From a virus, in the IMG/VR virus record IMGVR_UViG_3300045988_139350, positions 1 through 19,315 of that record: a stretch of 19,315 nt of DNA; one strand, given 5' to 3'. A program made the translations under genes and the position numbers. The notes under the pieces were generated by a model. The model was not told where the DNA came from. It saw only the letters and a list, made by a program, of their open reading frames with translations, and did no database searches. Of this stretch, positions 1 through 18,182 are shown piece by piece (position 1 is the first letter of the stretch; each line of letters begins with the position of its first letter).

Positions 1-89
1 ATCTAATTAATACTTCCCTGTTTACAAAACTTCCCCACATGGTTTCAGTAACTACATGTTATTTGTTTTATACTAGGGCAGAAGATTTT
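1..89. repeat. Left inverted terminal repeat (89 bp)
   Basis: Checked base by base. 1..89 (atctaattaatacttccctgtttacaaaac...ctagggcagaagatttt) is the exact reverse complement of 19227..19315. Identity ends at position 90 (a versus c). Confidence 0.97.
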
Positions 90-179
90 AATACTATATG
101 AAACAGTTCCAATAATATTTACATCAATTATTTGTCGAATTATTTTTATAATTATTTTCAAATATTTGTACAAAAAGTA

Positions 180-208
180 TTGCATTTTCTTTCCAAATGT
201 TATATAAT
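180..208 (+). promoter_or_regulatory. Early promoter P1 (sigma-A type), TTGCAT-17 nt-TATAAT
   Basis: TTGCAT at 180..185, 17-nt spacer, TATAAT at 203..208. The downstream TATAATTAAATCATGGAAAGGGAA is nearly identical to the sequence at P2 (3457..3480). Confidence 0.7.
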
Positions 209-312
209 TAAATCATGGAAAGGGAATTAAATATGCACTACTAAATATCATAACCTTGTAGTGGCTAAAGGTATGTATTCGGAAATAACAATAAAATGAT
301 GGAGGAATTAAA

Positions 313-438
313 ATGGACAGATTAGATTATGAATCAGAAATAATTGATATTTTAAACGAAGCATGTAGTAAGTTAAATTCACAAGAATTTGAAACACTAT
401 TAACAAGAGTTGAAGAACTACTAAATTTTTATAAATAA
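313..438 (+). CDS. Small hypothetical protein (41 aa), not in the ORF track
   Basis: ATG at 313 lies 7 nt after GGAGG (301..305). It reads MDRLDYESEIIDILNEACSKLNSQEFETLLTRVEELLNFYK then TAA at 436..438. It is the first ORF after P1. Confidence 0.5.
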   Translation: MDRLDYESEIIDILNEACSKLNSQEFETLLTRVEELLNFYK

Positions 439-454
439 AAAGGAGATTGATAAT

Positions 455-673
455 ATGACAAATAATGAAACTGATTTAATGGAAATAATAAAGAGTAGTA
501 TTGACTATAAATTAGAATGTTTAAATTGGAGAAATGAAGATATCGGTTTATGGTTAGATGGTATCATTTTTGCTTTAGGCAATCCTAGTTATGACTTTTC
601 ACATGGAATTCAAAGTTTAAGAGATTATTATTTAGGATTGGAGAGTGAAAAATATGTATCAACAAATAGCTGA
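455..673 (+). CDS. Hypothetical early protein (72 aa, acidic)
   Basis: ORF-track ORF. AGGAG at 441..445 lies 9 nt before the ATG. It is co-oriented in a tightly packed early operon. No motif recognised. Confidence 0.6.
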   Translation: MTNNETDLMEIIKSSIDYKLECLNWRNEDIGLWLDGIIFALGNPSYDFSHGIQSLRDYYLGLESEKYVSTNS

Positions 674-848
674 ATATATAAATAGTTTAAATCAAAAAGA
701 ATTAAAAAAGTTATATAAAAAATATCATGATATGTTATTTACTTTTTATATTAATTCAGATAGGGAAAAATATAATAGAACAATGCTTGTTATAAATTTA
801 ATTGATAATGCCTTAAGAGAAAAAGGTTATTGGAAGAATATGAGGTGA
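654..848 (+). CDS. Hypothetical early protein (64 aa from ATG 654; the track uses GTG 645)
   Basis: GGAGAG at 640..645 lies 8 nt before ATG 654. The track start at 645 is a GTG inside that RBS. It ends at the TGA within GAGGTGA, which also serves as the RBS of the next gene. Confidence 0.55.
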   Translation: MYQQIAEYINSLNQKELKKLYKKYHDMLFTFYINSDREKYNRTMLVINLIDNALREKGYWKNMR

Positions 849-858
849 TTAAATGAAT
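842..858 (+). repeat. 17-bp direct repeat GAGGTGATTAAATGAAT (copy 1, 5' junction of the PAPS-reductase-like gene)
   Basis: Identical 17-mer at 842..858 and 1806..1822. Each contains the upstream stop (TGA), the RBS and the next ATG. Confidence 0.9.
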
Positions 859-1812
859 GTCAATGAATTAAATAGTCTATTAGACAATATTAAAAATCCT
901 ACAATAGGAAAAGCATTATTAACTACTTATCATAAATTAAATAATTCTAACTACAATAAAGTCTTATGTTCAATAAGTGGTGGTAGTGATAGCGACATTG
1001 TATTGGATATGGTTTACAAATGTGATAATAATAAAATAGTTGATTATGTATATTTTGACACAGGATTGGAATATTTAGCAACTAAAGAGCATATAAAGTA
1101 TTTAGAAGAAAAATATAAAATAAATATAGAAATAATAAGGCCTAAAATTCCAATACCTTTATCTTGTAAAAAATTCGGGCAACCGTTTTTATCTAAACAT
1201 GTGTCTGAAATGATAGATAGGTTACAAAGGCATAATTTTAAATGGGAGGATAAGCCTTTTGATGTATTGATACAAGAATATCCAAAATGCAAATCTGCGT
1301 TAGAATGGTGGTGTAATGTTAAGCCATCGCCTGCTCATAATATTAATAGAAATAAATTGTTAAAAGAGTTTATGATTTTAAATCCTCCTAATTTTAAAAT
1401 AAGTCAACTATGTTGTAAATATGCTAAGAAAGATTTAGCTCATGATAAGCTAAAACAAGGTTATGACTTAGATGTAACAGGAATAAGAAAATCAGAAGGT
1501 GGTGTAAGGACTACTGCTTATAAATCTTGTTTTGATAATAATTTTGGAAAATATGATAGATATAGACCAATATTTTGGTTTACAGATAATGATAAATTAG
1601 AGTACAGAAAATTATTTAATGTATCTAATTCCAAATGTTATAATTTATATGGATTGCAACGTACTGGGTGTTGCGGTTGTCCTTTTGGAAGAAAATTCGA
1701 TTATGAGCTAGAAATTCTTGAAAAATTTGAACCAAAATTATATAACGCAGTTATAAATATATTTAAAGACTCGTATAATTATACTAGAATGTATAATGAA
1801 TTTAAGAGGTGA
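853..1812 (+). CDS. PAPS reductase / PP-loop ATP-pyrophosphatase family protein (319 aa)
   Basis: PP-loop CSISGGSDSDIVLD (SGGxDS). TGIRKSEGGVR and RPIFWFTDNDKLEY resemble conserved CysH/PAPS-reductase-family blocks. C-terminal Cys cluster LQRTGCCGCPFG. Confidence 0.8.
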   Translation: MNVNELNSLLDNIKNPTIGKALLTTYHKLNNSNYNKVLCSISGGSDSDIVLDMVYKCDNNKIVDYVYFDTGLEYLATKEHIKYLEEKYKINIEIIRPKIPIPLSCKKFGQPFLSKHVSEMIDRLQRHNFKWEDKPFDVLIQEYPKCKSALEWWCNVKPSPAHNINRNKLLKEFMILNPPNFKISQLCCKYAKKDLAHDKLKQGYDLDVTGIRKSEGGVRTTAYKSCFDNNFGKYDRYRPIFWFTDNDKLEYRKLFNVSNSKCYNLYGLQRTGCCGCPFGRKFDYELEILEKFEPKLYNAVINIFKDSYNYTRMYNEFKR

Positions 1813-1822
1813 TTAAATGAAT
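1806..1822 (+). repeat. 17-bp direct repeat GAGGTGATTAAATGAAT (copy 2, 3' junction of the PAPS-reductase-like gene)
   Basis: Identical to 842..858. The flanking bases differ on both sides. Confidence 0.9.
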
Positions 1823-2068
1823 TGCACATTTTCAACTTGTTTTTACTGGAACAATGGAACATGCAGAAAGAACAAAACAGATTGTTCAAAGTTGAGATAT
1901 GCACCAAAGCATAATTATGATTATTCCAAAGGTAGTTATGTTGTAGCAAAGAAAGATAAAAGAGATACTTATCATTACGCATTATATGATGAAAATGATA
2001 ATTTTATATGTAACACTAGTGAAAAGATGGTAGTATTATATAACTATAAAGTTTATTATGATGATTAG
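1817..2068 (+). CDS. Hypothetical protein with Cys-rich N-terminus (83 aa)
   Basis: GAGGTGA RBS. The N-terminus is MNCTFSTCFYWNNGTCRKNKTDC (C-x4-C-x8-C-x6-C). It shares a C-x-YW...C pattern with the N-terminus of the 2363..2677 product. Confidence 0.6.
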   Translation: MNCTFSTCFYWNNGTCRKNKTDCSKLRYAPKHNYDYSKGSYVVAKKDKRDTYHYALYDENDNFICNTSEKMVVLYNYKVYYDD

Positions 2069-2080
2069 AGGTGAATAAAA

Positions 2081-2275
2081 ATGACAAAAAGACAAATTGA
2101 ATTATTAATTGAAAGTATTAGTTATCACCAATTACATTTACAAAAAATGTATTGTCGATTTACTGATGAAAAAATATTAGAAAAAGCAGTACATGAACAT
2201 TTAGAATTATGTGAAATTTCAAAATTATTGATAGGAGTGTTAGATGTATATGATGAAGAAAATCAAAACTCATAG
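2081..2275 (+). CDS. Hypothetical early protein (64 aa)
   Basis: GAGGTGA RBS (tagaggtgaataaaaATG). Co-oriented. No motif recognised. Confidence 0.55.
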   Translation: MTKRQIELLIESISYHQLHLQKMYCRFTDEKILEKAVHEHLELCEISKLLIGVLDVYDEENQNS

Positions 2276-2378
2276 AATTAAACAATTTTATTATTGTTGT
2301 TCAAAATGTGGACGACAAATAGATAGTTACGAATATTATAAAAATGATGGGGTGTGTGATTTATGTCAATGGATGTAA
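2244..2378 (+). CDS. Small zinc-ribbon-like protein (44 aa), not in the ORF track
   Basis: AGGAG at 2233..2237 lies 6 nt before ATG 2244. It reads MYMMKKIKTHRIKQFYYCCSKCGRQIDSYEYYKNDGVCDLCQWM then TAA at 2376..2378. There are two CxxC pairs (CSKC ... CDLC). It bridges the otherwise non-coding gap between 2275 and 2363 and overlaps both neighbours. Confidence 0.45.
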   Translation: MYMMKKIKTHRIKQFYYCCSKCGRQIDSYEYYKNDGVCDLCQWM

Positions 2379-2677
2379 AATGTGAAAATTGTAAATATTG
2401 GAGGAAAATTGAAAATAGTATTTACTGTACAAGTAAATTTATGTGTGATAACTATGATAAGTTTGAAGCTAAACATTCCAAAATCAAGCCAAGTTATTAT
2501 GGTACTGGTATTGATGTAATAGAGTTTTGTTTAAGAAATAATTTAACATTTATGCAAGGTAATGTTATAAAATACGTAACAAGGTATAAAGATAAAAACG
2601 GTATTGAGGATTTACAAAAAGCAAAGGAATATATTGATAGATTAATTGAATTTGAAAAGAGGAGTGTAAATAAATGA
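2363..2677 (+). CDS. DUF3310-like phage protein with Cys-rich N-terminal extension (104 aa)
   Basis: The C-terminal YYGTGIDVIEFCLRNNLTFMQGNVIKYVTRYKDKNGIEDLQKAKEYIDRLIE matches my memory of the DUF3310 pattern (..IE.I......F..GN.IKY..R...K.G..DL.KA..Y...L). The N-terminus is CENCKYWRK...C...C. Confidence 0.65.
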   Translation: MSMDVKCENCKYWRKIENSIYCTSKFMCDNYDKFEAKHSKIKPSYYGTGIDVIEFCLRNNLTFMQGNVIKYVTRYKDKNGIEDLQKAKEYIDRLIEFEKRSVNK

Positions 2678-2895
2678 ACTATGTATATGAAATTTATAAA
2701 GTGTTAGAATCTAGAGGTTGTGAACAAATATCAATGGAGTTTGATTCTGAGTATAAAATACTGGAAGTTAAATATAAAAGAAAAAATCAAATTACTAATG
2801 AAATGACTGATGAAATGTTTACTATTGTTCCAAAGAATTATAAATCAGAAAAAGATTTAAAAGCGAAAGTAATAAGGGAGTTGTACTGTATATGA
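2674..2895 (+). CDS. Hypothetical early protein (73 aa)
   Basis: ATGA start/stop overlap with the upstream gene. GGAG at 2661..2664. No motif recognised. Confidence 0.55.
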   Translation: MNYVYEIYKVLESRGCEQISMEFDSEYKILEVKYKRKNQITNEMTDEMFTIVPKNYKSEKDLKAKVIRELYCI

Positions 2896-3092
2896 GTGAT
2901 AGATATATAGCATTTAAACTATTAGCAGATAAATGTGGAAAAGTTCTCGGTTACAGGGAACTTTATCCCGACGATATATTTTGGATAGCATATGCATATA
3001 TAAATGGTGGTTGTAAATCACGCAAAGATTATGAGTATTTAGTTAACTTTTTATTTGAAAATAATGATTGGAGAGAGGAGCTATTAAAATGA
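2892..3092 (+). CDS. Hypothetical early protein (66 aa)
   Basis: ATGA overlap with the upstream gene (translational coupling). No motif recognised. Confidence 0.55.
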   Translation: MSDRYIAFKLLADKCGKVLGYRELYPDDIFWIAYAYINGGCKSRKDYEYLVNFLFENNDWREELLK

Positions 3093-3361
3093 TTAGAGAA
3101 AGTTTACAAGATGTTAATTCAATTACTATAGAGGAATGCTCTGAACTTATACAAGCTTTGTCAAAATTAAATCGTTGGATTAGTGGTGATGTAACATTAA
3201 GAGCAAGTAAAGAAGAAATAGATAACATGGTACTTGAAGAAATGGTTGATGTATATATCTGTTTAGAAAAGTTGAACGAAAAGCTTGAAATAATACCCGA
3301 GGACTTCGATAGTATTTATATATCCAAGGTTACAAGATATAATGAATTAATGAATAAATAA
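3089..3361 (+). CDS. MazG-like all-alpha nucleoside triphosphate pyrophosphohydrolase (90 aa from ATG 3089; the track uses TTG 3068)
   Basis: GAGGAG at 3075..3080 lies 8 nt before ATG 3089, which overlaps the upstream TGA (ATGA). Paired acidic motifs EECSELIQALSK ... LEEMVDVYICLEKL are typical of small MazG/dimeric-dUTPase-like NTP-PPases. Confidence 0.65.
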   Translation: MIRESLQDVNSITIEECSELIQALSKLNRWISGDVTLRASKEEIDNMVLEEMVDVYICLEKLNEKLEIIPEDFDSIYISKVTRYNELMNK

Positions 3362-3367
3362 TAAGTG

Positions 3368-3397
3368 AAAGGACAGTCAATTATCTGTCCTTTTTTT
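3368..3397 (+). terminator. Rho-independent terminator ending early operon 1
   Basis: AAAGGACAG (3368..3376), loop tcaattat, CTGTCCTTT (3385..3393), running into a T-run through 3397. It starts 7 nt after the stop of the MazG-like gene. Confidence 0.8.
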
Positions 3398-3421
3398 GTC
3401 GAACAAAACTTTAAAATATTT

Positions 3422-3450
3422 GTTTACTAACTATTGCAAAAATCGTTTAA
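3422..3450 (+). promoter_or_regulatory. ECF-type promoter-like motif GTTTAC-N16-CGTTTAA superimposed on P2
   Basis: GTTTAC at 3422..3427, 16-nt spacer, CGT at 3444..3446. It has the same architecture as three minus-strand sites ahead of late gene blocks. The homologous P1 region lacks both elements (GTACAA ... CTTTCC). Confidence 0.45.
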
Positions 3451-3462
3451 ATGCTGTATAAT
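3434..3462 (+). promoter_or_regulatory. Early promoter P2 (sigma-A type), TTGCAA-17 nt-TATAAT
   Basis: TTGCAA at 3434..3439, 17-nt spacer, TATAAT at 3457..3462, followed by TAAATCATAGAAAAGGAA as at P1. It sits between a terminator and the next operon. Confidence 0.7.
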
Positions 3463-3509
3463 TAAATCATAGAAAAGGAACAAAATATTAAATAAAAGGA
3501 GAATGAAAA

Positions 3510-3875
3510 ATGAAAAAATTATTAATCGCTACATTAACAATGATGATGATCGGAGGAACAACTGTAAAAGCTGAAACAAATTTTAAAGTCCATAAAGAAT
3601 GTTTTGCAATGCCAGTATTGGTAAAAGTTGAAAATAATGGAGAATATGATTATAATGTATATTATGATACATTAGGAAATAAAATTGATTTATCTAAAGA
3701 AACAATTTATTTTAATGACGACAATGAAAGAGTGTATTTTCCATATGATGGTTATAAATTCCATGAAAATTATCATCTTGAACAAGAATTAGGAGAATAC
3801 ATTGATGAATTTGAAACTGCTCCATCTGCTATTACAAGGCAACTAGTAAGGGACGGTGAAAATAATGAAAATTAA
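3510..3875 (+). CDS. Secreted hypothetical protein with Sec-type signal peptide (121 aa)
   Basis: AGGAG lies 8 nt before the ATG. The N-terminus MKKLLIATLTMMMIGGTTVKA/ETNF has a basic n-region, a hydrophobic core and a VKA cleavage-like site. There is no lipobox Cys. Confidence 0.7.
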   Translation: MKKLLIATLTMMMIGGTTVKAETNFKVHKECFAMPVLVKVENNGEYDYNVYYDTLGNKIDLSKETIYFNDDNERVYFPYDGYKFHENYHLEQELGEYIDEFETAPSAITRQLVRDGENNEN

Positions 3876-4086
3876 AGATTTATTATTTAATGAATTGTTG
3901 TGGAGCAAAGAAAAAATTGAAATAATAAATTATGAAACAGATGAAATAATTTTTAATATAGACAGATTTGAAAATTTATATTTGGATGATGAATGGAATA
4001 AATATAAAGATTGGTCTATTAAATGGTTTGAAAGTAGATATAATAAAGAAACCAACGAAAGTTATATACGTTTTTATATTAATTAA
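3865..4086 (+). CDS. Hypothetical protein (73 aa from ATG 3865; the track uses GTG 3856)
   Basis: GGTGA at 3855..3859 lies 5 nt before ATG 3865. The track start is a GTG inside that purine patch. No motif recognised. Confidence 0.5.
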   Translation: MKIKDLLFNELLWSKEKIEIINYETDEIIFNIDRFENLYLDDEWNKYKDWSIKWFESRYNKETNESYIRFYIN

Positions 4087-4091
4087 TAATA

Positions 4092-4114
4092 AGGGAGTGA
4101 ACAATTCGCTCCCT
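4092..4114 (+). other. Stable hairpin without a U-tract upstream of the terminal protein gene
   Basis: AGGGAGTG (4092..4099), loop aacaatt, CGCTCCCT (4107..4114): 8 bp including one G-U pair. It is followed by aatacatataat, not a T-run. Confidence 0.5.
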
Positions 4115-4156
4115 AATACATATAATATAAATATATGAATAATGGGAGGGTATAAC

Positions 4157-4954
4157 ATGAATGCAAAAAGGCAATTATCAGGATTAAAAAGAGTTAATTG
4201 GGAAAAGAAGTCAACTAAACAAAAGGTAAAATATTTAGTTAATAAGTTACAAGTATTAGGTTATAAAATTCCAACTTATTTAAAAAATGGACAACTTAGT
4301 GATAGGCAATTAAAATCACAAATTAATAAAATTGAACGTGGGTTACAATCACAAATCAAAAAAGACAATTCTAGTAATAATAAAAAACAATTACCAATTG
4401 AAACAAGACTTAACAGGTATATAAAAAGATATAATAAACAAGTTGAATCAACTATTAACGGATTAAAAGCTATGGGACTATCAGAGCAACAAATTGATTA
4501 TTTAACTGGTAAAGATGTATTTTTTCCATCTAGGAGGAATAAAAGTTTTAGGATTGATGGTGTTGCATTAAAGAAAATTGGTGAACTAAATATATCTGAT
4601 GATGAAAGAAAATTAGCAATGTTAAATAAATTGAAGAATGATTATAAGAAGATAACACTTCAAGCAGTTTATGACAAATTAAATGATGATACTATGCAGA
4701 ATAAATGGTTTGCTGATTTTATGAGTTTAGATTTTGTTCAAAACATGGAAAGTTATCAAAGACAGGCTATATGGAAACAATGGCACACACTTTCACCACT
4801 GCAAAAAGAATTATTTATAAAAGGGGAACTTAATAATTTAAGAGATAAATATTTTGATATTGGTGAAGGTGAAATGGATAAAGCTTCTGAAAATTCTTAT
4901 GCGAGAATTGACAGGACTATTAATGAATATAGACAATTAGATAGTTTTAAATAG
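4157..4954 (+). CDS. Terminal protein candidate (265 aa from ATG 4157; the track uses ATG 4142)
   Basis: GGGAGG at 4144..4149 lies 7 nt before ATG 4157, so the track start sits in front of that RBS. The gene is immediately upstream of the protein-primed PolB, as gene 3 is in phi29. The size is close to phi29 TP (266 aa) and the N-terminal half is basic. The C-terminal INEYRQLDSFK resembles the phi29 TP end (..YLEQYRRGDFDLSLKGF, from memory). Confidence 0.65.
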   Translation: MNAKRQLSGLKRVNWEKKSTKQKVKYLVNKLQVLGYKIPTYLKNGQLSDRQLKSQINKIERGLQSQIKKDNSSNNKKQLPIETRLNRYIKRYNKQVESTINGLKAMGLSEQQIDYLTGKDVFFPSRRNKSFRIDGVALKKIGELNISDDERKLAMLNKLKNDYKKITLQAVYDKLNDDTMQNKWFADFMSLDFVQNMESYQRQAIWKQWHTLSPLQKELFIKGELNNLRDKYFDIGEGEMDKASENSYARIDRTINEYRQLDSFK

Positions 4955-4967
4955 GGAGGGTTAATAA

Positions 4968-7097
4968 ATGGATTTAAATGAGAGGTTAAAAAATATAACA
5001 GAGAATTTAGATAATTATTATTCTTATAGGTGTATTCCAAATTATGCTGAAACACAAAATTTTGCATTTGATATTGAAGCATGTTATTTAAAAGAAAAGA
5101 ATGAAATGTTGACTTATTCTATAGCATTAATGTCATGCGATAATAATACAGATATTTGTTATCATTATAAATCTGTTGATAAGTTTATGAATGATTTACT
5201 ATCTATTAAAAAGAAAACAATTAATTTATTTGCTCATAATGCATTATATGATATCAAGCCTTTTATATTATGGTTTACTGAACAAGATAATGCTAATCAA
5301 AGATTTGATGCATATTATGAAAAAGAATGTTACGATTTTTATAATAAGAAAAAAGAGAAATTAAAATTTACAGCTAAAAATAAATCAAAGTTAAAATCAT
5401 TTGAATACAACTTAATAATGAAAGATGGTGTTTTTTATAAGTTAACTTTACAAGGTGATGATGTAACTATAAATTTTTATGATACTTTCAAAATTGCTCC
5501 ATTTAGTTTACAAAAATGTTGTAGTGATTTCCTTGATTTATGTTTACCAAAAGATGGATTAGATTATGAAAAAGAAAGAAGTATTGATGATGATTTAACA
5601 ACAGAAGAATTAAGTTATATTTATAATGATGTGTTTGGGTTAAGTTATTTAGTAAAAATGTTAAAAATTGACGGACTTGATATATACGGAAAACATGTTG
5701 TGTATACTAAATTAACAAATAGTGGTCAATCATTAGAGGACTACAAAGAAACAGTTCTTGAAGATTATACTTTAAAACAAAATATGTTTAAAAATCAAGA
5801 TTTATTTGACTATGTAGATAATGGGTTAATGCGAAGTAAATTTTTTCAAACTAATAGTCCTGCGTTAAAGAAACAAATAATGTTTGAATGTTTATTCCCA
5901 AAACAAAGTTATTTTACTGACGCATGGCAAAGACATTCTTATTATGGTGGATTAAGTACAGTATGTTTTGAAAATGTAGAAAAATTTACAAAATGTAAAA
6001 ATCATAATGGTATAGTTTTAGATGTTAATTCATTATATCCTTATATAATGAGCGATAGATTATTACCATATGGTCAAGCAAACTATAAGGAAATTCCGTG
6101 GTGCAAAATGAATGAAAGTTATAAGAAATGTTTTCCACTTTATATTCAAGAAATTACTATTTATGATTTTGAAGTAAAAGAAAATAAGATGGCATTCTTA
6201 CAAGTTAAGGACAATCCAAATTTTAATGGTAGAGAAATTTTAAAGAATAATATAAAAGATGGTGAAAAGGTAACATTAACTTTTAGATTATGCAATCCAT
6301 TACTTGAATTATTATTTGAATGTTATAATGTTTACTCTTATGAACTTGGTGGTCATATGGCATTTACTGGTAGTCATGATTTATTTAAAAATTATATTGA
6401 TTTTTGGAGCGAAGTAAAAAAGAATAGTACAGGAGCAAATAGGGCAATTGCAAAACTTAGACAAAATGGGTTATATGGTAAATTTGGTATGAGTGGCTCA
6501 AATGAAATTACAGAGTTTGAAAATAAAGACGGTATATTTACAATTAATCATTTACATGATGAATATGTTTCAGATAATGTTTACTTACCTATGGCGACCT
6601 TTATAACTTCATATGCTAAACAGTATCTAGTACAAGCTATTAATGCGAATTACGACAGATTTTTATATTGTGATACTGATAGTTTACATTTATACGGAAC
6701 ACTTGAAGAAGTTAAAGGTGTGAACATTGGTGCAAAAATATATGGTTACTGGGATAATGAGTTGTGTTTTGAAGATTTTAAATATATTGGTAGCAAACGT
6801 TATGCAGAAAAGAATGCAGAAACTCATAAATGGGAAATTAAATGTTGTGGGCTAACTGATAGCATTATGAAACAAGTTGATGATATTAATGTATTTGATA
6901 ACTGCCCACATTCAAGTAAGGAATTAAAAAAGATCAAATTATACACAAAAGAAAATGATGTATATTATTATTACGACGAAGAATGTACAAAGAAAATAGT
7001 AGGATTAATTAAATCTAAGAAATCAAAGATTATAAAAGGTGGTACACTTATACAAGAGCAACCTTATAAAATTTCAAATAGTTATTATTTATTTTAG
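4968..7097 (+). CDS. Protein-primed family-B DNA polymerase (709 aa)
   Basis: Exo I FAFDIEA. Exo II LFAHNALYDIKPF. Exo III YIYNDVFGL. Motif A VLDVNSLYPYIM. Motif B KLRQNGLYGKFG. Motif C LYCDTDSLHL. GGGAGGG RBS. Confidence 0.95.
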   Translation: MDLNERLKNITENLDNYYSYRCIPNYAETQNFAFDIEACYLKEKNEMLTYSIALMSCDNNTDICYHYKSVDKFMNDLLSIKKKTINLFAHNALYDIKPFILWFTEQDNANQRFDAYYEKECYDFYNKKKEKLKFTAKNKSKLKSFEYNLIMKDGVFYKLTLQGDDVTINFYDTFKIAPFSLQKCCSDFLDLCLPKDGLDYEKERSIDDDLTTEELSYIYNDVFGLSYLVKMLKIDGLDIYGKHVVYTKLTNSGQSLEDYKETVLEDYTLKQNMFKNQDLFDYVDNGLMRSKFFQTNSPALKKQIMFECLFPKQSYFTDAWQRHSYYGGLSTVCFENVEKFTKCKNHNGIVLDVNSLYPYIMSDRLLPYGQANYKEIPWCKMNESYKKCFPLYIQEITIYDFEVKENKMAFLQVKDNPNFNGREILKNNIKDGEKVTLTFRLCNPLLELLFECYNVYSYELGGHMAFTGSHDLFKNYIDFWSEVKKNSTGANRAIAKLRQNGLYGKFGMSGSNEITEFENKDGIFTINHLHDEYVSDNVYLPMATFITSYAKQYLVQAINANYDRFLYCDTDSLHLYGTLEEVKGVNIGAKIYGYWDNELCFEDFKYIGSKRYAEKNAETHKWEIKCCGLTDSIMKQVDDINVFDNCPHSSKELKKIKLYTKENDVYYYYDEECTKKIVGLIKSKKSKIIKGGTLIQEQPYKISNSYYLF

Positions 7098-7111
7098 GGG
7101 GTAAGGGATTT

Positions 7112-7675
7112 ATGAAATATGAAGATTATATTAATCAATATGGTGATAGATATTTAAGGGGTATGACTTATAAATATTATAATAGTATTTTAGTAAAATA
7201 TCATGATAGAGTAGAGTTTGAAGACGTGCTTCAAATATGTGAAGCAAAAGTCGCATTTGCTATAAATGAATATAATAAAGATATTGCCGGGCTAAACACA
7301 TTCATAGCAAAAGTAATAAAAAATGGAGTTTATGATGTTTTAAAAGTTGAAAGAAGAGAAAAAAGAAAAGTCTATGATAACAGAGTATTTTTAGATAAAG
7401 AAGTAGTTGAAAATGAAAGTAATAATGAATTGAGTTTATACAATGTCATTCAATCCGAAGATGAATACGAAGATATAAATGAAATAATTGATAAAGTTTG
7501 CGAATTTATTAAAAACGAAAGACATAGAGAATATTTTAAAATGTATTGTCAAGGATATACAATTGAAGAAATAAGTAATAAATTCGGAGTAAAATACAAT
7601 GGAACAAAAACAATTCTTTCAAGGATAAGAAAGAGATTAAGAGAACACGAAAAAGAAATAAGAGAAATAATATAA
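7112..7675 (+). CDS. ECF-like (group 4/5) sigma-70 family factor (187 aa)
   Basis: Region-2-like FEDVLQICEAKVAFAINEYNKD...LNTFIAKVIKNGVYDVLKVERREKRK. Region-4 HTH-like REYFKMYCQGYTIEEISNKFGVKYNGTKTILSRIRKRLRE. The size and two-domain layout are typical of ECF/TcdR-like sigmas. Confidence 0.75.
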   Translation: MKYEDYINQYGDRYLRGMTYKYYNSILVKYHDRVEFEDVLQICEAKVAFAINEYNKDIAGLNTFIAKVIKNGVYDVLKVERREKRKVYDNRVFLDKEVVENESNNELSLYNVIQSEDEYEDINEIIDKVCEFIKNERHREYFKMYCQGYTIEEISNKFGVKYNGTKTILSRIRKRLREHEKEIREII

Positions 7676-7680
7676 TAATT

Positions 7681-7706
7681 GGAGGGTTTTACCCTCCTTT
7701 TATTTT
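7681..7706 (+). terminator. Rho-independent terminator at the convergence point of the early and late arms
   Basis: GGAGGG(T) at 7681..7687 and (A)CCCTCC at 7691..7697, followed by TTTTATTTT. The T-run overlaps the stop codon of the convergent ATPase gene. No comparable U-run exists on the minus strand. Confidence 0.75.
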
Positions 7707-12200: not shown

Positions 12201-12229
12201 ACTAACGACAAAAAAGGACTTGAGTAAAC
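12201..12229 (-). promoter_or_regulatory. ECF-type promoter-like motif GTTTAC-N16-CGTTAGT ahead of the appendage gene
   Basis: On the minus strand: GTTTAC (12229..12224), spacer tcaagtccttttttgt (16 nt), CGTTAGT (12207..12201). The -35-like hexamer lies in the loop and 3' arm of the preceding hairpin. The leader to the RBS would be very short. Confidence 0.4.
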
Positions 12230-16583: not shown

Positions 16584-16612
16584 ATATACGACAAAAAAGG
16601 AGGGTTGTATAC
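16584..16612 (-). promoter_or_regulatory. ECF-type promoter-like motif GTATAC-N16-CGTATAT ahead of the tail gene block
   Basis: On the minus strand: GTATAC (16612..16607), spacer aaccctccttttttgt (16 nt), CGTATAT (16590..16584). It sits about 25 nt upstream of the RBS of the 519-aa gene. The -35-like hexamer lies in the loop of the preceding terminator. Confidence 0.5.
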
Positions 16613-17954: not shown

Positions 17955-17990
17955 TATTATTTCCTCCTTTTAATTTATTAATTCTTAATA

Positions 17991-18118
17991 GAATACCCAA
18001 ATATGCACCTTGTAGTGCGTTGGGTACTCAATAAAAATGCAATTTATAAATGTTAATAACGGAAATACCACTTTCGACCTTACAACTATCGGCTCTTCAC
18101 CGTGGTGCATAGTTGTAA
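17991..18118 (-). promoter_or_regulatory. GC-enriched structured leader / candidate ncRNA: two 39-nt hairpins upstream of the scaffold gene
   Basis: Minus strand. Hairpin 1 (18118..18080): UUACAACUAU pairs with AUAGUUGUAA (10 bp), internal loop GCACCA, upper stem CGGU/GCCG, loop GAAGA. Hairpin 2 (18029..17991): GAGUACCCAA pairs with UUGGGUAUUC (10 bp, one G-U), upper stem GCAC/GUGC, loop UACAAG. An alternative 8-bp pairing exists between UAUGCACC (18111..18104) and GGUGCAUA (18009..18002). Confidence 0.5.
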
Positions 18119-18153
18119 CATTATTATTCAACGTATTATAAACTACAATTATT

Positions 18154-18182
18154 ATATACGATTGAAAAAATAAAAGGTAGAC
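18154..18182 (-). promoter_or_regulatory. ECF-type promoter-like motif GTCTAC-N16-CGTATAT, candidate main late promoter
   Basis: On the minus strand: GTCTAC (18182..18177), spacer cttttattttttcaat (16 nt), CGTATAT (18160..18154). It sits between the right-end operon terminator and the late genes. The -35-like hexamer spans the loop and 3' arm of that terminator. Confidence 0.5.

Follow-up and report, generated by a model that had tools for sequence, protein, structure and literature searches.

The locus described here raises the question of whether a phage-encoded sigma factor can sustain its own synthesis. It lies in a 19,315-nt stretch of viral DNA, referred to below as the window, in which a promoter of the sigma-A type, P2, precedes the operon encoding the sigma factor and is interleaved with one copy of a bipartite motif that recurs on the late-gene strand. 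The earlier note interpreted this arrangement as an autoregulatory promoter. For the allele carried by the window we consider a sigma-dependent start inside P2 to be plausible, and we hold that reading tentatively.

The window looks like the complete linear genome, 19.3 kb in length, of a protein-primed (phi29-like) phage from the human gut. Its G+C content is about 26% and it ends in inverted terminal repeats with arms of 149 nt that are 83% complementary, the first 88 nt or so being identical by eye. Early genes are located on the + strand (1-7675) and their products include a PAPS-reductase-like protein and a DUF3310 protein, while on the - strand an SSB gene, at the right end, precedes phi29-type late genes encoding the MCP, tail proteins, upper and lower collar proteins, appendage, holin, endolysin and packaging ATPase. 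A megablast search with the whole window against 50,697 phage records yielded no match to an isolated phage, and a tblastn search of the same records with the sigma factor yielded nothing; only PolB matches distant isolates, at about 30% identity, the closest being Guelinviridae of C. perfringens. The relatives used for comparison originate from human-gut metagenomes.

The operon downstream from P2 has the gene content that had been attributed to it, a signal-peptide protein, a putative terminal protein (TP), PolB and the sigma factor, and its genes are as follows.

3510-3875, + strand: accessory gene of the P2 cassette, encoding the signal-peptide protein
3856-4086, + strand: accessory gene of the P2 cassette, a 76-aa ORF
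4142-4954, + strand: putative TP of 270 aa, assigned by position only
4968-7097, + strand: PolB, protein-primed family B DNA polymerase (PF03175)
7112-7675, + strand: ECF-type sigma gene (PF07638, TIGR02937)

A profile search with the 270-aa ORF gave no match and its identity as TP is suggested by its position. No terminator was predicted between P2 and position 7681. The sigma gene comes last in the operon; beyond it lie a bidirectional terminator and then the gene for the packaging ATPase, which is convergent and whose start is annotated as TTG or GTG only.

On the basis of its profile matches, the protein encoded at 7112-7675 can be assigned to the ECF-type (group 4) sigma-70 family. It is a two-domain protein of 187 aa with regions 2 and 4 present and regions 1.1 and 3 absent. 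The Pfam model Sigma70_ECF (PF07638) scores 27.1 bits against a cutoff of 21.1 and TIGR02937 (sigma70-ECF) 62 bits against 42.9, and there are further matches to PHROG sigma-factor families; Pfam matches to region 2 (residues 22-82) and region 4 (residues 136-178) lie below their own cutoffs, and region 3 gave none. The specific NCBIfam models searched (SigZ, the PG0214 family, SigM, SigX and others) scored far below their cutoffs, so that none of these defined ECF subgroups applies, and a PDB sequence search retrieved no relative at E <= 0.01. No protein resembling an anti-sigma factor is encoded upstream of the sigma gene, and none is co-encoded with it.

Three copies of the motif GTNTAC-N16-CGT are found on the late-gene strand, at its three transcription-unit boundaries.

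12205..12229, - strand: late site A, GTTTAC-N16-CGT(TA), before the appendage gene and after the lower-collar gene
16588..16612, - strand: late site B, GTATAC-N16-CGT(AT), after the MCP gene and before a tail gene
18158..18182, - strand: late site C, GTCTAC-N16-CGT(ATATAAT), before a structured RNA and the first late genes

Each of them overlaps a stable hairpin with a T-tract, resembling an intrinsic terminator, and has a T-rich spacer. The hexamer is positioned in the hairpin loop at sites A and B (hairpins 12236-12215 and 16617-16598, respectively) and in the 3' arm at site C (18197-18174), which follows the right early operon. BLAST comparison of the orthologous sites showed that CGT is kept at every late site in every related genome. 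Site A is invariant in all relatives; at site B the hexamer is GTATAC, GTGTAC or GGTTAC, CGTAT is invariant and the next three loop bases vary; and at site C the hexamer is GTCTAC or GTTCAC, the spacing is either 16 or 17 nt, and TCGTATATA is invariant. In the two relatives with GTTCAC at site C, the substitution is paired with a compensating change in the 5' arm of the hairpin. The CGT of site C is directly followed by a sigma-A-like TATAAT, and the homologous position in most members of a more distant clade reads CATACAAT, with TACAAT and mostly CAT rather than CGT. Sites A and B have the tail CCTTTTTTGTCGT in common and the terminator preceding P2 ends in TTTTTTTGTCGAA.

The motif is strongly overrepresented. 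Dinucleotide shuffles predict 0.117 copies of GTNTAC-N16-CGT; the window has four, and none of 300 shuffles exceeded one copy; for the looser GTTTAC-N14-18-CGT there are two matches against 0.18 expected. All four copies are intergenic, in a genome of which only 9% is intergenic, and all are co-oriented with the downstream genes. A definition of the motif based solely on late sites A, B and C predicts about 0.12 additional occurrences by chance in the genome, and about 0.001 in the 150 nt or so preceding the sigma operon, which makes it very unlikely that the P2 copy arose by chance.

The possibility that the motif is an automatic by-product of terminators was rejected on two grounds: the hairpins at 3367-3394, 7681-7697 and 8759-8733 all lack it, and its 16-nt register is constant even though the hairpin of site C is displaced by 6 nt compared with those of A and B. 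The hairpin at 8759-8733, with a 10-bp stem, lies between the endolysin and packaging ATPase genes and has neither a proper T-tract on the - strand nor the late motif. A second short sequence, TTTGTCG, is also enriched, with five copies against 1.2 expected. Four of them are at regulatory sites, upstream of P1 (131-137, +), upstream of P2 (3395-3401, +) and in the tails of late sites A (12212-12206, -) and B (16595-16589, -); the fifth (2313-2319, -) lies inside a small zinc-ribbon ORF that is missing from the 50-aa ORF list.

The most likely interpretation of these data is that GTNTAC-N16-CGT(A/T) constitutes a promoter type that is read by RNA polymerase carrying the phage sigma factor. Firmicute ECF promoters are likewise bipartite, with an AAC-type -35 element and a CGT-type -10 element, and T-tracts in their spacers are frequent and stimulating (PMC5758882). 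By analogy, it is reasonable to regard the motif as the cognate promoter of the phage sigma, with some caution in view of the tail common to sites A and B, the recurrence of TTTGTCG, and the co-varying hexamer, variable spacing and adjoining TATAAT of site C. What we infer from the sequence is thus that the motif belongs to this sigma, that the P2 copy is used, and where transcripts from P2 would start.

The elements of P2, of the terminator preceding it and of P1, a paralogous promoter near the left end of the genome, are listed below.

162..208, + strand: P1, paralogous sigma-A promoter without the motif (GTACAA 168-173, TTGCAT 180-185, TTT 190-192, TATAAT 203-208)
3367-3394, + strand: hairpin of the intrinsic terminator upstream of P2, continuing with a T-tract and GTCG to 3401
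3422..3427, + strand: GTTTAC, proposed -35-like element of the phage-sigma-type site
3434..3462, + strand: P2, sigma-A-type promoter TTGCAA-17-TATAAT, a 10/12 match in the promoter scan
3443..3448, + strand: TCGTTT, proposed -10-like element with CGT at 3444-3446, inside the sigma-A spacer

All the coordinates given earlier for P2 proved exact (GTTTAC 3422-3427, TTGCAA 3434-3439, CGTTTAA 3444-3450 and TATAAT 3457-3462), and the two pairs are interleaved as described, with a gap of 16 nt between GTTTAC and CGT and of 17 nt between TTGCAA and TATAAT. GTTTAC precedes the sigma-A -35 element by 6 nt. P2 has the TTGACA-like -35 element, the gap of 17 +/- 1 nt and the TATAAT-like -10 element of a sigma-A promoter, and the sigma-A hexamers are kept in all P2 and P1 copies, with TTGAAA in one class of P2 alleles (type II, below) and TACAAT in L169/L170. 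Some ECF operons of B. subtilis (sigM, sigX) also have a sigma-A promoter alongside the ECF promoter.

The site in P2 is the only copy of the motif on the + strand. It precedes the operon's first gene by 88 nt, is co-oriented with the operon and has the same bipartite structure as the late sites; with site A it shares GTTTACT and TCGTT, the strictest form of the motif. It has neither a hairpin nor a T-rich spacer, the spacer being A-rich, and it includes a direct repeat of GTTTA (at 3422 and 3445, 23 nt apart). Its -10 element has the CGT of ECF promoters, and its -35 core is TAC, as at the late sites, against the canonical AAC of ECF promoters (PMC5758882). GTTTAC was also considered as an alternative -35 element for sigma-A and was rejected because the hexamers 17 nt downstream from it, TTTAAA in type I alleles and AACAAA in type II, lack the key A2 and T6.

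Comparison with P1 defines what is specific to P2. The two promoters are homologous over about 78 nt without gaps, and the homology of about 100 nt that had been claimed holds if the upstream TTTGTCGAA is included with an indel. They have in common the blocks AAATATTTG, TATTGCA, AAATG and TATAATTAAATCAT, and differ within the nine bases upstream of the -35 element and within ten bases of the spacer, which are the places where GTTTAC and CGT are found in P2. At the corresponding positions of P1 the earlier note gave GTACAA, which is correct, and CTTTCC, which is one base out of register, the matching triplet being TTT at 190-192; the shift is immaterial. The motif is absent both from the P1 of the window and from the P1 copies of 12 relatives (0/12), and its specificity for P2 is thereby upheld. 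The 14-mer TATAATTAAATCAT was also tried as a probe for P1 and P2 copies in viral contigs, and retrieved 120 unrelated loci, being unspecific in AT-rich DNA.

We then compared 26 distinct related contigs that span the region and encode sigma factors that are 81-97% identical. P2 turned out to be part of an optional cassette that consists of the terminator, P2 and one or two accessory genes. The terminator (3367-3401; fold energy -13.4 kcal/mol, z = -3.3) forms its left edge. The cassette is absent from four of the 26 contigs (L005, L007, L012/L157 and L162), where orf97 is directly followed by a conserved hairpin and then by the TP gene. Its cargo also differs, with an extra gene in L003 and a 71-aa gene only in L171. 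Relative to the genomes lacking the cassette, positions 3367-4086 of the window, comprising the terminator, P2, the secreted-protein gene and the small ORF, appear as one insertion/deletion block. The TP-PolB-sigma operon therefore did not have P2 as its ancestral promoter.

GTTTAC is the same in each of the 22 P2 copies, even in the eight that lack CGT, and this hints at a role for the hexamer that is independent of CGT. Type I copies, defined by CGT, number 14 and represent seven haplotypes, always with a spacing of 16 nt; the eight type II copies carry TGA (six copies) or TGT (two copies) in place of CGT, and at this element a single C-to-T change is all that separates one of the type II haplotypes from a type I haplotype. 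Over the seven type I haplotypes TCGTT is invariant and 7 of the 17 spacer positions vary, a difference with p of about 0.04 for a segment that was chosen post hoc. The pattern at P1 is the reverse: its spacer is nearly invariant, and the upstream hexamer varies at four of six positions (GTACAA, GTCCAA, ATCAAA, GTATAA, GTTTAA and TATCAA) against none of six in P2, where the spacer is the most variable part.

Neighbour-joining trees built from the sigma, PolB and TP genes show type I, type II and cassette-less states intermingled, and the alleles therefore look like recombining variants. The complete P2 motif is absent or broken in 12 of the 26 related contigs, its two elements are not conserved together among relatives with the same sigma factor, and no compensating motif copy was found elsewhere upstream of the sigma gene in the type II and cassette-less genomes. 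Given that CGT is lost in 8 of 22 P2 copies while the late sites keep it, and that P2 itself is missing from 4 of 26 contigs, autoregulation is neither conserved nor essential; the earlier interpretation is weakened to this extent, and the exact match to the motif and the ECF-type nature of the sigma factor stand. The feature is one allele, polymorphic and optional, of a cassette that is itself optional, and it is not a core trait of the phage family. The distant clade (L023-L030) was considered as a further test, and its TP promoter lacks the motif that resembles site C in that clade; the clade is uninformative because the sigma-like protein encoded there is a different one.

For the allele in the window, the proposed mechanism would operate in two phases. 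Early in infection, the host sigma-A polymerase would start near 3469. Once the phage sigma has accumulated, the holoenzyme containing it would be able to start about 13 nt upstream of the sigma-A start, near 3453-3455 (3452-3456 in the earlier note), and would thereby keep the accessory secreted protein, TP, PolB and the sigma factor transcribed in a positive feedback loop. Both predicted start sites fit standard distances between -10 elements and starts and are reasonable in this respect. The exactness of the match, its improbability, its specificity for P2 and the modest constraint on TCGTT in type I alleles favour a real sigma-dependent start, as far as can be judged from the DNA. The P2 copy may be a weak one because its spacer is A-rich while T-tracts stimulate ECF promoters (PMC5758882). 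The weights that we attach to this reading and to the three alternatives below are rough and overlapping, and they are not meant to sum to 1.

The alternative that survives best, which we nevertheless consider rather unlikely, is that the P2 copy is a non-functional resemblance of chance or historical origin, for example a remnant of promoter-module recombination, and that only sigma-A initiates at P2. The motif is short, with eight specified bases; it is missing or broken in nearly half of the contigs (12/26) with no compensating copy before the sigma gene; P2 lacks the hairpin and T-tract common to the three late copies; and the constraint on TCGTT in type I alleles is marginal, given its post hoc choice (p ~0.04). 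Set against this are the very low expected numbers of chance copies, about 0.12 in the genome and 0.001 in the 150 nt upstream of the operon, and the fact that P2 carries the strictest form of the motif with N16 kept in seven haplotypes across diverse genomic backgrounds.

It is also conceivable, and in our view unlikely, that GTTTAC is functional by itself, as a site for an early/late regulator that tells P2 from P1 or as an upstream promoter subsite, and that the CGT in the spacer is a neutral polymorphism by which one allele happens to complete the late-type motif. The persistence of the hexamer in all 22 copies next to the most variable part of P2, and the reversed pattern at P1, would be accounted for in this way, as would the direct repeat of GTTTA within P2. 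The distribution of the hexamer alone points in the same direction: 5 of its 18 copies are intergenic, although intergenic DNA makes up 9% of the genome, and it occurs without a CGT partner, as (T)GTTTAC, in the two terminal repeats (20-25 and 19296-19291) and where the -35 element of a right-end early promoter, TTTACC-17-TATAAT, is located (19151-19146, - strand). However, the invariance of six positions over about nine haplotypes is weak evidence (p of about 0.09 relative to the next six positions), the sigma factor is the only candidate DNA-binding regulator that was identified, and the presence of the full motif, at the exact 16-nt spacing, in the very operon that encodes the sigma factor would stay unexplained.

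Quite improbable, finally, is the proposal that the motif is no promoter at all and acts as a terminator or RNA-level signal (a hairpin loop plus a U-tract tail, TTTTTGTCGT), with late genes expressed by read-through or antitermination and the P2 copy therefore without a counterpart function: the coincidence of all three late copies with stable hairpins and T-tracts, the tail common to sites A and B, the similar end of the terminator before P2, the excess of TTTGTCG and the compensatory changes that maintain the hairpin at site C while altering its hexamer would all fit, but the constant register despite the 6-nt hairpin shift, the conservation of the site B hexamer while neighbouring loop bases vary, the three other hairpins lacking the motif, and the need of a phage sigma for cognate promoters, for which no motif ahead of the late genes looked a better candidate, speak against it.

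Returning to the sigma-dependent start in P2, the proposed design resembles, by analogy, ECF autoregulation in B. subtilis combined with late promoters driven by a phage sigma. ECF sigma factors typically have autoregulatory promoters (PMC5758882). With sigW, sigX, sigM and sigV of B. subtilis the phage system shares a two-domain sigma, a gap of 16-17 nt a CGT-type -10 element (CGTA for sigW) and a copy of the cognate promoter, presumed to be such in the phage, upstream of the sigma's own operon (PMC5758882). It differs from them in its GTNTAC -35 element, in place of (G)AAC, in the lack of an adjacent anti-sigma gene, in its location in the genome of a lytic phage and in having promoters that are interleaved and not tandem; moreover, the P2 copy is polymorphic or absent in close relatives and has no spacer T-tract.

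Among phage-encoded sigmas, gp47 of Salmonella phage 7-11 recognises late promoters of the form GTAAtg-N16-aCTA with starts 6-9 nt downstream (PMC8948821). Like 7-11 gp47 and phiEco32 gp36, the present factor would be a divergent sigma of a lytic podovirus that redirects the host core enzyme to late promoters (PMC8948821, PMC12276001). Those sigmas belong to an unrelated family of Gram-negative phages of about 70 kb, unlike the 19-kb protein-primed phage considered here, and their consensus is different; there is no detectable sequence similarity between the sigmas (tblastn, 50,697 phage records). In the accessible portions of the 7-11 and phiEco32 literature, no report was found of a sigma operon whose early promoter is interleaved with a sigma-dependent one.

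Resemblances to phi29 include the inverted terminal repeats, an early operon encoding TP and PolB, the late structural genes and the terminators between blocks (PMC11476376). Overlapping promoter elements are also known from phi29, where A2b, A2c and A3 with p4 switch expression (PMC11476376). There, unlike here, the regulator is p4 (with p6), a DNA-binding activator and repressor that works with host sigma-A, and no phage sigma is involved; sigma factors have zero occurrences in a 2024 review of phi29-like phages (PMC11476376). What sets the present arrangement apart from known designs is its TAC -35 core, the absence of an anti-sigma factor, the phi29-like virus that carries it, the true interleaving of the promoters and the polymorphism.

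A broader scenario, which we regard as doubtful, is that these phi29-like gut phages replaced the p4-type switch with an ECF-type sigma acting on promoters fused to terminators, and that about half of the sampled population carries the feedback allele as a segregating switch. With that allele, the sigma factor would sustain its own synthesis late in infection, and the replication proteins and an accessory secreted protein would also continue to be made. Sister alleles can be as little as one C-to-T change apart, and such a change would abolish the loop and so constitute a naturally segregating regulatory switch.

Should the P2 copy be used, two holoenzymes would share one 40-bp promoter and the early operon would become continuously expressed, and this would be the first clue to the wiring of the switch from early to late expression in a phi29-like phage that has its own sigma. 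If it is not used, the match would be mere coincidence, in a promoter that is accessory and belongs to an uncultured phage. The variants found in nature (CGT, TGT, TGA and the cassette-less state) provide ready-made mutants, and the bipartite motif together with the small sigma could serve as an orthogonal expression part for low-GC Firmicutes.

Several further observations concern neighbouring parts of these genomes. The spacer of P1, TTTTCTTTCCAAATGTTA (186-202), is almost invariant in the family and recognisable with few substitutions in the distant clade (L025:~60-110); that it is kept while the hexamer upstream of the P1 -35 element varies freely suggests that something may bind it. The distant clade encodes a different sigma-like protein of 229 aa after PolB and has its late genes colinear with the early ones. 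One of its members (L027:6190-6300) has seven tandem 16-nt units, GAGTATACTCATTTAC, just ahead of the first late gene, and every unit contains a perfect 10-nt palindrome.

Immediately before the ribosome-binding site of the TP gene (4098-4141, +), all relatives have a hairpin that lacks a U-tract, GGGAGTGAACAATTCGCTCCC, and then TAATACATATAATATAAATATATG. Its stem shows compensatory changes (GGGTGAACATTTTCACCC; also L005:4530-4583 and L003:2900-2965), and L003 has a second copy before the secreted-protein gene. The hairpin may serve in processing or stabilisation, or it may mark a junction of the cassette.

Finally, a non-coding stretch of about 185 nt (17965-18150, - strand) lies between site C and the first late ORF. 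An Rfam search gave no family anywhere in the window at the gathering threshold, and in this stretch the matches were at chance level. Its loop, CCNNGGTGAAGAGCC, is kept across ten relatives and seven loci of the distant clade, and the flanking helix shows compensatory changes (TTACAACTATG/CGATAGTTGTAA, TTGCAATTACA/TGTAATTGCAA and CTACAAATACG/TGTATTTGTAG). A second hairpin co-varies as well (CGCACT/GGTGCA, CGAGCT/GGCTCA and CGAGTT/GACTCA), and the structured RNA is a likely candidate for an analogue of the packaging RNA (pRNA).
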